Assembly (NCBI GenBank): GCA_902500055.1
Contig: GCA_902500055.1_4131.1
Length of the DNA stretch: 64,000 bases
Direction: 5' to 3' (one strand)
From: Escherichia coli
GTDB lineage: Bacteria > Pseudomonadota > Gammaproteobacteria > Enterobacterales > Enterobacteriaceae
Notes under the pieces: model-generated
What the model was told of the DNA's origin: nothing
What the model saw: the letters and a program-made list of their open reading frames with translations, nothing else
Database searches by the model: none
Shown: in pieces, positions 13,484 through 58,268 of the stretch
How the letters are laid out: each line of letters starts with the position of its first letter
Position numbering within the stretch: the first letter of the stretch is position 1
Program-made: the position numbers and the translations under genes

Positions 13484-13697
13484 GATTTGTTTCCTTATTA
13501 CCAGGGGAAACCGTTTCCCCTTTCGATGTAAAACATTATACGCTTATTGAGATAGTTTGCAAGTACTTTTTAAAAATAGTTTTCAGTACTCAATACTTAT
13601 ATAATAGATACACTTATGCACCCGGTGGGCTAGTGAGCTATCTCTCAATGAATATATAATAGCAAAATGGCTGACCGAAGTCAACCACTTTTTTCAT

Positions 13698-47469: not shown

Positions 47470-47505
47470 CAAAAGGGCCGACCTAAGTCAACCCTTTTTT
47501 TATTC
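47470..47505 (-). terminator. UNCG-type tetraloop terminator (bidirectional)
   Basis: GGGCCGACCTAAGTCAACCC with T-run. Confidence 0.45.
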
Positions 47506-51707: not shown

Positions 51708-52349
51708 TCAATAAAAAACTGGATCTTCTTCAGTAACTGGTATTTCTCTACGTACATCACACGAAAGAGGATCAGTAATGAATACATTGCCATCTTTATC
51801 CATCATCACATTACTTGAATGAATGTCTGGTACAAAACGCCCGTGAAACTCTTTCATGATGTTAGCAGCGACCGTTGCAATAGCAATCTCTTCAGAATTT
51901 CCACGCATATCATTCACTGAAGTAGCGTACTGACCAGCATGTGCATAAGAATATAAATCTCCAATTTTAGTACTAACAAAGTCATCATAATTATTTTTTT
52001 GTTTAATTATAGGATAGTACTTGTCCATCTCATACCATCCAAAGTTTCCTTGTTCGTTGGCACTGTAGATCACTGGAAGAAACTTGGTTCCTGCGTTTTC
52101 AATGCAGTACTTTGCATAAGCACGAAAACCATCCCAGCGTGAAGTGGTTACTTTAAATGCACGTCCAGGATAGTTTTTATGTTCAACTACTACAGAGTAC
52201 ATCCCCATTCCAAGCAAAGTAAGTCCAGCAGCTTTAACTTGTGGAAAGATTACGCGTTCAGCATAAGGAATATCAAACTCCATCGCACAACGAGTTTTTG
52301 ATGGACGCAAAATGTCAATTAAAGTTTTGAATATGTCTTGCTTAGTCAT
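51708..52349 (-). CDS. protein-kinase-like phosphotransferase (putative)
   Basis: Gly-rich LGMGMYSVVV, AFKV lysine, catalytic DIHSSNVMMD, FITDP; start trimmed to Met12 with AGAGGA RBS. Confidence 0.5.
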   Translation of the reverse strand: MTKQDIFKTLIDILRPSKTRCAMEFDIPYAERVIFPQVKAAGLTLLGMGMYSVVVEHKNYPGRAFKVTTSRWDGFRAYAKYCIENAGTKFLPVIYSANEQGNFGWYEMDKYYPIIKQKNNYDDFVSTKIGDLYSYAHAGQYATSVNDMRGNSEEIAIATVAANIMKEFHGRFVPDIHSSNVMMDKDGNVFITDPLSCDVRREIPVTEEDPVFY

Positions 52350-52382
52350 TACTTTATCCTCTGTAGTTAATACCAACATCAT

Positions 52383-52420
52383 AACAAAAAAGGCTGACCG
52401 AAGTCAACCTTTTGTTTTAT
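52383..52420 (-). terminator. UUCG-tetraloop intrinsic terminator (bidirectional)
   Basis: Minus strand GGTTGACTTCGGTCAGCC followed by TTTTTTGTT. Confidence 0.6.
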
Positions 52421-53679
52421 CATTTACCGTATTTGCTCATGATATCCTTTTCCCAAGGAGTTACATTTCCATTTTCGTAATCACGGAAAGAGTCATCAAG
52501 TGTAGTCAATGCATAATCATATGCCTCACCGGATTCAACATCAATGTCAACAGCACCATTCACTACATCAGTCCACGCTTTTTGTAGTTTACGAGCGTTG
52601 TTACCAACTTTATCTTTAATCCAACTAAGATTTCGGTTTATACTCTTCTTATCAGCACCAGCTTTTTCACCAACATCTGCAACCCATTGCATTAATTTCT
52701 GTAGTTCGTTATGGGATTTTTCAGTCATTTGGCGGTCTTGTGACAGTTCAGCTTCCATGTCATCAATTTCTTCGTCTGAATGAACATCATTCTGTTCTAC
52801 TGCACCTTCTTCATCATCACGCATCAGATAACCATCTCGTGTAACCTTCTCACCATGATCAGCTTCATACTTTTTCATAGTATTGAATGCAGCATCCATT
52901 GCAGTTACAAAACGACTCTTTTCACCTTGTACATAAGATTTAAGTGCATCGTTAACTGCATCAGATACTAATTTAATCTTATCGTCTTTACCTTCCAGAC
53001 GGTTTTCTAACTTAGCTAGTACATTCTTAACTTGTTGAGCATTAGCACGGTCTTCTTTACCAATACTATCAAATGTTTTAAGTACGCTTTCAAGACTTAC
53101 TTCCTCTTGTGCAGGCACATCACCTTGTTGCGTACCTTCAAGTGCACGCATTATAGTACTGAATACTTCAGTTGGTTCAGTACTGGTATTTCCACTCATT
53201 GCATCAAGTACAGCTTGTGCTTTGACTTTTAATTCTTCTTTAGGTACAGATTGCAATTCTTTCACAATACCTTGGATAAGTTGTGGTTTATTAGCAAAAA
53301 TCTTACCTAACTTATCAGACAGTTCTTTGACAGGGTTAACCGCCTTTGGTGCTTCTTGTTTTGGTTCTTCTTTCGCAGGAGCAGACTTTTCTTTTTCTTC
53401 ACGTTCCATATCAGCTAGACGTTGTTTTTGTGTAGCATTAAGAAGTCCCAATGAATTAACATAACGTAGCTTTTCTAGCTCAGTCATGTTCTCAGTACTC
53501 TTAACTTCACCTGCTTCTGCGTTTGCCTTACCAGCAAGTCCCGTTCCTTGGTTTCTGGAACCACGTGAACCTTGTCCTGCTTGATAACTATTTTTGCGAC
53601 GATTTCGGTCGGCCCATTTATCCGAGTGTTGTACTAGTCCACCATTACGATGTTTCATATCCCCATTATCTTGTGGCAT
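52420..53679 (-). CDS. hypothetical acidic coiled-coil protein with basic N-terminus
   Basis: ORF track 419 aa; shares YVNSLGLL region with 55024-55407. Confidence 0.65.
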   Translation of the reverse strand: MPQDNGDMKHRNGGLVQHSDKWADRNRRKNSYQAGQGSRGSRNQGTGLAGKANAEAGEVKSTENMTELEKLRYVNSLGLLNATQKQRLADMEREEKEKSAPAKEEPKQEAPKAVNPVKELSDKLGKIFANKPQLIQGIVKELQSVPKEELKVKAQAVLDAMSGNTSTEPTEVFSTIMRALEGTQQGDVPAQEEVSLESVLKTFDSIGKEDRANAQQVKNVLAKLENRLEGKDDKIKLVSDAVNDALKSYVQGEKSRFVTAMDAAFNTMKKYEADHGEKVTRDGYLMRDDEEGAVEQNDVHSDEEIDDMEAELSQDRQMTEKSHNELQKLMQWVADVGEKAGADKKSINRNLSWIKDKVGNNARKLQKAWTDVVNGAVDIDVESGEAYDYALTTLDDSFRDYENGNVTPWEKDIMSKYGK

Positions 53680-53683
53680 ATTT

Positions 53684-54226
53684 TTAATCCTCTATCCATG
53701 TTTGATTGTATAAAATACGACGTATTGTTTTTTTACATACACGGTATTTATTACAATTTTCTCGTGCATATTCTATCACATCATTATAATTATCATTATA
53801 ATCTTTTCTTATTTCTCTTACAATTTCCCATGTCAACACAGCAGCACCACGATTAGTTGTTGCGTTACCATGTGAATAAGAATATAGTACGTTTTCAGAT
53901 GCTGTGTTCCATTCCAAATTCAAATAGTGATTGTTACTTCTATTACAATCTTTATGGTTTATGTGAACAACTTTTTTCTTTGTTCTACTCGCCCACTGTA
54001 ACTGTTTCTGTGTGGGTGGTGGTAAAAATGCTTCAGCTACTAGTCGATGAATCGCCTTTCTATTTTTCACAGAATTGCGATACAAATCGACCTTCACATA
54101 CCCATCTTTATTTTTAAATCCACAACTTATATATCCAGTTTGTTCGTTTCTTACTCTTCCATGATCAGAAATTGAATAGTCATAATCAGGAATTAATTTC
54201 CAACGTTCCATGTTTATTTCTTCCAT
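53684..54226 (-). CDS. HNH homing endonuclease
   Basis: N-terminal WKLIPDY...YSISDHGRVRN, HRLVAEAF, HINH.D..R.NN...NLEW. Confidence 0.75.
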   Translation of the reverse strand: MEEINMERWKLIPDYDYSISDHGRVRNEQTGYISCGFKNKDGYVKVDLYRNSVKNRKAIHRLVAEAFLPPPTQKQLQWASRTKKKVVHINHKDCNRSNNHYLNLEWNTASENVLYSYSHGNATTNRGAAVLTWEIVREIRKDYNDNYNDVIEYARENCNKYRVCKKTIRRILYNQTWIED

Positions 54227-54229
54227 TAT

Positions 54230-54265
54230 ATATAAAGGTTGACCGAAGTCAACCCTATTTTCACT
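54230..54265 (-). terminator. UUCG-tetraloop intrinsic terminator
   Basis: GGTTGACCGAAGTCAACC perfect hairpin. Confidence 0.5.
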
Positions 54266-54276
54266 GTACTATACCA

Positions 54277-54573
54277 TTAGTAGTTACAGTCAGCTTTCGC
54301 TGTGAATGTTTTACTTTCTCCGCGTTGTGTGGTGATTCGTCCGAGTAAAGTAGTTTTGTCAATAGTCATTGTAGTTAGTACTGGAACATTACCTTCAAAG
54401 TCAATAGCTTTGAAATTGTAGGTGGTTTCATTCTCCACTACACTTGGACCAAAGAGTTCATATGTGTTGATTTCAAGTGTGTCACCATCTGAACGCAACA
54501 GTGTGCAGTCCAGATTAGGAGTAGCCAGTACAGGGAAAGCCAAACACATTATCATTGCTATAATTAATTTCAT
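54277..54573 (-). CDS. secreted protein (signal peptide)
   Basis: N-terminus MKLIIAMIMCLAFPVLA. Confidence 0.55.
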   Translation of the reverse strand: MKLIIAMIMCLAFPVLATPNLDCTLLRSDGDTLEINTYELFGPSVVENETTYNFKAIDFEGNVPVLTTMTIDKTTLLGRITTQRGESKTFTAKADCNY

Positions 54574-54833
54574 TTCACTTCTCCTGATTTTTTCTTAGGA
54601 TCAACCAATGACCAAATGAAGAATCCGAGAATTACAAGTACCCACAGAATCATGATAAAGAAAGCAAACAGTACAATAGTATTTGTCAAAAAGAAATACA
54701 ATAGAATGTTCGACCCAATACTACATACAATCAATGCAGCTTCATGTTTAACAACACGAATGGCTGTAATGAGTGCGGGAAGAAATCCGACAAATAACAG
54801 TACTAACGCATATAGTGATAATGTTTCAGCCAT
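54570..54833 (-). CDS. small membrane protein
   Basis: ORF track 87 aa; hydrophobic helices. Confidence 0.5.
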   Translation of the reverse strand: MAETLSLYALVLLFVGFLPALITAIRVVKHEAALIVCSIGSNILLYFFLTNTIVLFAFFIMILWVLVILGFFIWSLVDPKKKSGEVK

Positions 54834-54989
54834 GATATCCCTTATTTGGTTTGTTCAACACTAGGTGTATTGATATAGGTGTCAATTGAATAACATACTG
54901 TACCCACTACAACAGCAGCGATTAGGGCAGCAACTACAAATTTCAAACCTTGCATATATGATACCTCAGTTATATTGAGAAGTTATGAT

Positions 54990-55030
54990 ACAACAAAGGG
55001 CTGACCTTAGTCAACCATTTTTATTACTTC
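54990..55030 (-). terminator. tetraloop intrinsic terminator
   Basis: GGCTGACCTTAGTCAACC with flanking A/T runs. Confidence 0.45.
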
Positions 55031-55407
55031 TTGAACTTATGTTTTTCACTTTCGATTGCATTCACGATTTCATCATGAATTTTACGAAGATTGTGAGTTT
55101 TCTTTAGAGAATCATGCAATGCACGGAATGCAGAGTGTACAGTTGCTTTAAAGTGCTCTTTAGGAGTTACTTTAAGTTTCTCGATAATATCACGTACATA
55201 GATTGGGTGATCCTCAAACACACGATTAAGCTCATGGCCTAGTGATTCTAGGCTAAATGCTTTTTCACGGGATGGACGATCATGTGCAAGACTTTGGTCT
55301 GGTTTTAGAAGACCTAGTGAATCTAGATACTTGTGCTTATGTGCATTGTCTAGACCAGAAATATCAACATCATGTGATGGATCTTTCTTATTCCATTTAC
55401 CAACCAT
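55024..55407 (-). CDS. hypothetical protein (shares domain with 52420-53679)
   Basis: KYLDSLGLLKPDQ and HPIYVRDIIEKLKVTPKEHFKA parallel RYVNSLGLLNATQ and KPQLIQGIVKELQSVPKEELKV. Confidence 0.6.
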   Translation of the reverse strand: MVGKWNKKDPSHDVDISGLDNAHKHKYLDSLGLLKPDQSLAHDRPSREKAFSLESLGHELNRVFEDHPIYVRDIIEKLKVTPKEHFKATVHSAFRALHDSLKKTHNLRKIHDEIVNAIESEKHKFKK

Positions 55408-55522
55408 TTTTATAACTCCTATAAGAGATAAATTTTACTATAATATTTATAGTTCCGTTGTCATTTATATCGAATGACATAAAACATTATATCATAATAA
55501 GAATGGTTGTCCCAAAGTTAAA

Positions 55523-58231: not shown

Positions 58232-58268
58232 ACAAAAAAGGCTGACCGAAGTCAACCTTTGTTTTGAA
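58232..58268 (-). terminator. UUCG-tetraloop intrinsic terminator (bidirectional)
   Basis: AAAAAAGGCTGACCGAAGTCAACCTTTGTTTTG. Confidence 0.55.

Follow-up and report, generated by a model that had tools for sequence, protein, structure and literature searches.

A predicted free-standing homing endonuclease gene in a recombinant tract upstream of a virion structural gene of an Asteriusvirus jumbo coliphage

The HNH locus and its neighbours

The stretch of DNA analysed in this study (64,000 nucleotides, hereafter the window) is, judged by its sequence, part of an Asteriusvirus jumbo coliphage genome of the 121Q/PBECO4/phAPEC6-like kind, being 97–98% identical over 24 kb to phages UB, JP4, phAPEC6, PBECO4 and 121Q, and about 87% identical to the clade of EC.P1, fEgEco12 and CMSTMSU. 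On its minus strand, an open reading frame (ORF) for an HNH protein, present exactly as first described, is preceded in order by the gene of a 127-aa virion protein, a 37-aa ORF, an 87-aa ORF, a 98-aa ORF and a UUCG hairpin, and is followed by the gene of a 419-aa virion structural protein and then by another UUCG hairpin. The genes and signals around the HNH ORF are:

53684–54226, minus strand: HNH ORF, 180 aa at its maximal extent, with an upstream in-frame ATG at 54226
53684–54211, minus strand: probable true extent of the HNH gene, 175 aa, starting at Met6
52420–53679, minus strand: virion structural protein gene, 419 aa, directly downstream of the HNH gene
54277–54573, minus strand: small ORF, 98 aa, with a hydrophobic N-terminus, a possible signal peptide judged by eye
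54570–54833, minus strand: small ORF, 87 aa, hydrophobic and membrane-like, inside the transferred tract described below
54237–54254, minus strand: terminator-like UUCG-tetraloop hairpin, GGTTGAC-TTCG-GTCAACC, upstream of the HNH gene
52392–52409, minus strand: UUCG hairpin with a T-tract after the structural gene, the first terminator-like site 3' of the HNH gene

The HNH gene thus stands between genes unrelated to it, as the original prediction had it: the 98-aa ORF upstream and the structural gene downstream. The 419-aa product of the latter matches PHROG 20398 (E = 9e-170), with 121Q gp201 and fEgEco12 g555 annotated as virion structural proteins. The two genes are tightly packed; the HNH stop codon (53684–53686) is followed 4 nt on by the structural-gene ATG (53679), and the GAGGA ribosome-binding site of the structural gene (53688–53692) lies inside the HNH 3' coding sequence. 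Neither the 98-aa nor the 87-aa ORF matched a Pfam or PHROG family.

Several features of these neighbours can be added. In phage vB_Ec-M-J the region matching the two small ORFs is annotated as 'immunity to superinfection' and 'membrane protein', annotations that Pfam and PHROGs do not support, and in EC.P1 a 1-nt indel near 54586 merges the two ORFs into one. The large structural gene encodes 419, 497 or 509–515 aa across clades through internal length differences. The 127-aa virion protein (55024–55407, minus strand) looks like its short paralogue: both proteins match PHROG 16530 strongly, and the 127-aa protein matches PHROG 20398 only weakly. Two genes downstream of the HNH gene lies a T7 gp0.7-like protein kinase gene (51708–52382, minus strand), identified from the protein kinase annotation of relatives and the Pfam Phage_T7_kinase entries of contig tables.

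No RNA or intron family in Rfam was matched between 52000 and 56000, and the flanking ORFs are complete, separate genes; the HNH gene is therefore free-standing, as originally described, and we rejected an intron-encoded HNH gene on the same two observations. In HNH-less relatives the hairpin and the structural-gene ATG are separated by about 60–75 nt of plain intergenic DNA, with no split gene. The further proposal that UUCG terminators flank the gene stood on one side only: one lies upstream at 54237–54254, whereas the next on the downstream side, at 52392–52409, comes after the 1.26-kb structural gene. The upstream hairpin ends the small-ORF unit, is conserved in phages with and without the HNH gene, and folds into a 9-bp stem; the whole 91-nt stretch containing it and a second small stem has a minimum free energy of −16.5 kcal/mol.

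Domain architecture and fold of the HNH protein

Profile searches, the check suggested with the original prediction, found an HNH fold and accounted for both of the modules that had been noticed in the sequence. Both Pfam matches score above the curated gathering cut-offs. The N-terminal RWKLIPDY/WKLIPDY module belongs to a NUMOD4 domain (PF07463, residues 7–49; E = 4e-7, 30.6 bits against a cut-off of 23.4), and the HNH motif falls in an HNH_3 domain (PF13392, residues 58–113; E = 3.6e-7, 30.1 bits against 24.8) with its H..N..N residues intact, in agreement with a match to the PHROG 59 'HNH endonuclease' profile (E = 5e-37) and with the structural match described below. The domains are laid out as follows:

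54080–54208, minus strand: NUMOD4 N-terminal beta-strand DNA-binding module, residues 7–49 of the 180-aa ORF (RWKLIPDYDYSISDHGRV...)
53888–54055, minus strand: HNH_3 catalytic (beta-beta-alpha-metal) domain, residues 58–113, with the motif N90-H91, N103, N112
53711–53830, minus strand: putative C-terminal three-helix (helix-turn-helix-like) DNA-binding domain, residues 133–172

Because all close homologues begin with M-E-x-W, which corresponds to Met6 of the 180-aa ORF, and because a database copy (P0001) that is 100% identical to the HNH protein is 175 aa long, translation likely starts at 54211 (Met6), not at 54226. The protein is an addition to a well-known kind, the identical sequence being already named 'HNH endonuclease' or 'NUMOD4 domain-containing protein' in NCBI and UniRef. 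No paralogue of it was found in the window by tblastn.

Among solved structures, the sole sequence match in the PDB is I-HmuI of Bacillus phage SPO1 (1u3e; E = 2e-5, residues 8–127). I-HmuI is a monomeric, strand-specific nicking enzyme. In an alignment of 44 homologues (A2), which also served as the basis of an AlphaFold2 model, H91, N99 and N103 are invariant and N90 is nearly so. The H-N-N motif positions of the two proteins align, N90-H91, N103 and N112 corresponding to I-HmuI D74-H75, N87 and N96, and N112, the counterpart of the metal-binding N96, is kept in five close lineages. The model is confident (mean pLDDT 92) and consists of an N-terminal beta module (strands within residues 9–58), a beta-beta-alpha core and three C-terminal helices (133–146, 150–157 and 165–172). 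Searched against the PDB with Foldseek, it gave a single significant match, to 1u3e_M (E = 6.8e-8, probability 1.00, 182 aligned columns), with a TM score of 0.53, an rmsd of 8.8 Å and about 23% identity; the modest TM score and the large rmsd are probably due to domains being oriented differently in an extended protein that was modelled without DNA.

From the model and the Foldseek alignment, domain order and fold follow those of the solved I-HmuI–DNA complex, both proteins running from a NUMOD4 beta module through an HNH catalytic domain to a C-terminal helix-turn-helix. The C-terminal end itself, K(T/S)(I/L)RRILYNQTW, is conserved in five lineages, and its helices gave only weak, partial and non-significant Foldseek matches to homeodomain-type helix-turn-helix folds (E about 2–5). 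Profile, alignment and model together support assignment of the ORF as an I-HmuI-type HNH endonuclease (NUMOD4, HNH_3 and helix-turn-helix). It differs from I-HmuI in a 12-residue insertion (PPPTQKQLQWAS...) that its lineage carries before the HNH motif, and in its setting, I-HmuI being encoded in a group I intron of a DNA polymerase gene whereas the window gene is free-standing and intergenic. The protein also matches the profiles of the NUMOD4–HNH_3 phage genes of PHROG 59 and PHROG 959 strongly, and 1,364 phage records, T5-like, SPO1-like, Enterococcus and Lactococcus phages among them, contain homologues with 30–43% identity; unlike these genes at large, the sub-lineage of the window (54–100% identity) is tied to the site before a RaK2/121Q-type virion gene.

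Filled and empty sites among related phages

A tblastn search of 45 related phage records found the HNH gene in EC.P1 only; its product there has 100% amino-acid identity, and no other match reaches 45%. The exact protein occurs on at least 23 contigs, and among the matches listed, 10 of 10 places have its gene 4 nt before the structural gene and span two backbones (the 419-aa and 497-aa versions of the structural gene). The gene is thus polymorphic for presence and absence at one fixed site in otherwise collinear genomes.

Comparison with relatives lacking the insertion, as suggested in the original prediction, defined both the filled and the empty site. BLAST and MAFFT alignments against fEgEco12 and phAPEC6 delimit the following block:

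53629–54233, strand not assigned: block without counterpart in HNH-minus relatives, 605 bp, containing the HNH gene plus codons 1–17 of the structural gene

The block takes the place of about 107 bp that hold a TATAAATA box, the structural-gene ribosome-binding site and the canonical first 15 codons of that gene (MPGQFTDKNGGNMAG). Codons 1–17 linked to the cassette (53629–53679) encode the variant MPQDNGDMKHRNGGLVQ instead. At its right edge, the block abuts the conserved hairpin at 54237–54254, which so marks that edge of the cassette. In an exact-match scan of IMG/VR, the filled-site junction was found on no contig and the empty-site junction on one.

A recombinant tract around the cassette

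Sliding identity and informative sites place the cassette within a longer segment whose affinity differs from that of its surroundings:

53560–54926, strand not assigned: EC.P1-clade tract, co-conversion-like, in a phAPEC6-like backbone

Its left junction falls between 53,455 and 53,560 and its right junction between 54,926 and 54,932. Outside it, the window is 98–100% identical to phAPEC6 (up to about 53,455–53,551 and again from 54,932), and EC.P1 is 70–90% identical to the window; within it, identity to EC.P1 is 99–100%, with 12 differences over 1,367 bp, one of them in the HNH gene. Other HNH-plus contigs differ from the tract at 0–12 positions. The tract carries the HNH gene, the 98-aa and 87-aa ORFs and the new first 17 codons of the structural gene. 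Both small ORFs are missing from phAPEC6, UB, G17 and 121Q, the HNH-minus members of the backbone clade examined in detail, and are present in the fEgEco12 clade, which lacks the HNH gene. As read from these identity profiles, this distribution shows that the HNH gene came recently, inside a 1.4-kb patch in front of the virion structural gene.

The HNH-plus phAPEC6-like contigs have a left-hand pattern in common and three different right junctions, at 54926|54932 (the window and L007), 54917|54923 (L010, L013 and L016) and 54987|54992 (L011). The three right junctions fit repeated gene conversion around the cassette; these contigs may also go back to a single transfer, the right side having recombined later. 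Because the region 53,455–53,527 holds no informative sites, the two histories look alike in these data.

Long-term association with a shared slot

Metagenomic relatives of the HNH protein with 85, 59, 57 and 54% identity are all encoded 1–11 nt before a homologue of this structural gene. Compared with the 85%-identical copy (L017), the HNH gene has a dN/dS of 0.08, and compared with the more distant copies 0.19–0.30, which is purifying selection; in the L017 comparison the two neighbouring genes have similar dS values, 1.09 for the HNH gene and 0.94 for the structural gene. Since dN/dS is low and dS is alike in both genes, substitution patterns identify the HNH gene as functional and as having co-diverged with its neighbour.

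Two other phages, UB (L004:3108–3881, minus strand) and TH47 (L025:1825–3009, minus strand), have an unrelated endonuclease-like gene in the same intergenic slot before the same structural gene. The two copies are 38–45% identical to each other, match PHROG 681 (E = 1e-42) and have weak, sub-threshold Pfam matches to DUF4379 (a treble-clef zinc finger) and MUG113. These T5orf172/MUG113-type genes, with their treble-clef zinc-finger repeats, belong to a different family from the HNH gene, and no paralogue of either protein was found in the window. UB and TH47 each have their own variant N-terminus of the structural protein, that of TH47 (MPSDYNNGDMKHRNGAIVQHS) resembling the one in the window, and the UB copy leaves the TATAAATA box intact. 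Because two unrelated endonuclease families share it, the slot before the structural gene is, on this comparative evidence, a hot spot for homing-endonuclease genes. RaK2 contains eight places matching the PHROG 681 family.

Probable homing and its alternatives

We consider it probable that the ORF is a free-standing homing endonuclease of the I-HmuI type that acts by the homing mechanism outlined here. Four observations support the homing-element interpretation of the original prediction: presence in 1 of 45 records, a constant site, a foreign tract of about 1.4 kb and differing right junctions. By analogy with I-HmuI and T4 MobE, the enzyme would bind a long asymmetric site in HNH-less Asteriusvirus genomes during mixed infection, probably in or close to the stretch that holds the virion structural gene's promoter, ribosome-binding site and 5' end. 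It would nick one strand, and this nick would become a break through replication or processing. With the HNH-carrying genome as repair template, the gene and its flanking markers would then be copied into the broken genome, in this case along with the two small genes. The carrier itself would be immune through replacement of the target region of about 107 bp, including the first 15 codons, by the cassette and its recoded N-terminus. This proposed basis of immunity is weakened by more distant HNH copies (L018, L021 and L022), which are found beside structural genes that keep the canonical MPGQFTDKNGG start, so that immunity does not in general require recoding of the N-terminus.

The gene setting has a close precedent. 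Homing endonuclease genes cluster beside essential phage genes (PMC10448857), and T4 MobE, a free-standing HNH enzyme that depends on upstream transcription, makes a strand-specific nick in an HNH-less relative whose repair co-converts flanking DNA (PMC2790892). Like mobE, the window gene is wedged at the 5' end of a conserved gene, and its recombinant tract and hitch-hiking neighbour genes fit the MobE picture of co-conversion. The target neighbour is nrdB for MobE and the virion structural protein gene of an Asteriusvirus jumbo phage here. The likeness is one of gene setting, by which a similar activity may be predicted.

On a related reading, the nuclease persists chiefly for its benefit to the phage, for example as a weapon against competing HNH-less relatives, whose DNA it would cut, and its own propagation is secondary. 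An intron-encoded HNH enzyme of PhiPA3 is reported to interfere with a co-infecting phage (PMC11620839), and that precedent favours this reading, as do the strong purifying selection (dN/dS 0.08) and the position of the gene before a virion gene, the product of which competitors need as well. Most relatives, on the other hand, do without the HNH gene, the sequence offers no direct evidence of such a role, and a weapon with the same biochemistry is compatible with homing. As the main reason for the gene's retention, we judge it unlikely.

Alternatively, the nuclease gene could have been a passenger, brought in when mosaic jumbo phages sharing a host cell underwent ordinary homologous recombination, with the endonuclease uninvolved. 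Co-conversion of flanking markers is consistent with homing, and recombination independent of any endonuclease could yield the same pattern. Identity to the window switches among relatives away from the HNH gene too, that of UB and G17 shifting along the structural gene within 52,400–53,150; as these phages are generally mosaic, the recombinant patch is not in itself proof of endonuclease-driven conversion, and the single left-hand pattern of all HNH-plus phAPEC6-like contigs would also suit a passenger. Against this, the foreign tract is short and stays close to the HNH block, its junctions lying about 70–175 bp and about 15–80 bp from heterology; the HNH lineage is found at the same position before the same gene at 54–85% identity and under purifying selection; and other phages have an endonuclease gene of an unrelated family in that slot. 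A short hugging tract, a constant position and a shared slot are together typical of homing sites, and we regard a passenger origin as distinctly unlikely.

That the protein is a decayed, inactive remnant of a homing endonuclease might be suspected from two residues: Asn stands before the catalytic His where I-HmuI has Asp (Asp74), and Tyr stands at position 115 where relatives have His. Neither position is conserved across I-HmuI-type enzymes as a whole, and the NH dipeptide is the family norm, N90 being nearly invariant. The reading frame is intact in at least 23 contigs, dN/dS is 0.08, H91, N103 and N112 are kept and the full-length model is confident, observations on which the pseudogene reading was rejected and which leave decay very improbable. 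A terminase-associated or essential HNH protein, such as a packaging cofactor of the HK97 gp74 type, has the shared HNH motif and nothing further in its favour and was rejected as hardly credible, since no terminase stands among the neighbouring genes, which are small ORFs and one virion structural gene, the family is HNH_3/NUMOD4 and not that of packaging HNH proteins, and nearly all close relatives lack the gene, which is therefore not essential.

By itself the HNH gene would be a routine annotation. The value of the probable homing system lies in offering a clean natural case of homing-endonuclease-associated gene flow in Asteriusvirus coliphages, with a clear filled site and empty site available in jumbo phages, a short donor tract that also brought two accessory genes into a new backbone, and a slot taken by at least two unrelated nuclease families. 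It is also a testable system that bears on marker exclusion and on recombination among related jumbo phages combined in cocktails, where such phages are therapeutic candidates.

Expression signals at the insertion

The cassette may have changed how the structural gene is expressed. The TATAAATA box occurs once in the 64-kb window, against 13.4 ± 3.8 expected, and this sole copy (55444–55451, minus strand) lies shortly before the gene of the 127-aa virion protein. The five HNH-less relatives examined each have another copy in front of the large structural gene (L001:3322, L003:2947, L004:3112, L005:3089 and L006:2443), which HNH-plus alleles lack. In the 4.6–6.2-kb loci compared from relatives, the box is confined to positions before the two virion structural genes. 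This distribution suggests that TATAAATA is a T4-late-type promoter, taken out by the cassette, inside which only variants with one mismatch were found, TATATATA (54234–54227) and AATAAATA (53752–53745). One further match lies at the cassette border:

54225–54252, minus strand: sigma-70-like promoter match, TTGACT-16 nt-TATAAT, 11 of 12 positions, a consensus match only

This match is made up of one arm of the hairpin and the first bases of the cassette, and its −10 box overlaps the ATG at 54226. Promoter-like sites are about as frequent in the region as in shuffled sequence (16 against 13.2 expected), and we therefore do not rely on it.

With the box gone, transcription of the structural gene in HNH-plus phages would pass through the HNH gene or begin upstream of it; candidate signals are TATATATA at 54234–54227 and the sigma-70-like match at 54252–54225. 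The two genes are probably co-transcribed, given that no terminator lies between them. Folding of the HNH 5' region returned only the upstream hairpin and no convincing structure that would hide the ribosome-binding site (z = −1.3).

Taken jointly, the loss of the box, the ribosome-binding site now placed within the HNH gene and the exchange of the first 17 codons allow a more speculative reading, which we hold only tentatively: expression of the structural gene may have become dependent on the cassette, the recoded N-terminus may serve as an immunity determinant, and the 5' end of the gene may be the hot spot of a three-way arms race, a possibility raised because UB and TH47 carry two other endonuclease-linked N-terminal alleles. 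If so, a cassette-dependent structural gene would make the nuclease gene hard to lose.

The hairpin that borders the cassette belongs to a set of six near-identical ones, GGTTGAC-TTCG-GTCA(A/G)CC, on the minus strand of the window (13669–13686, 47476–47493, 52392–52409, 54237–54254, 54999–55016 and 58240–58257), where 0.01 would be expected by chance, and this family looks like a reused intergenic terminator module.
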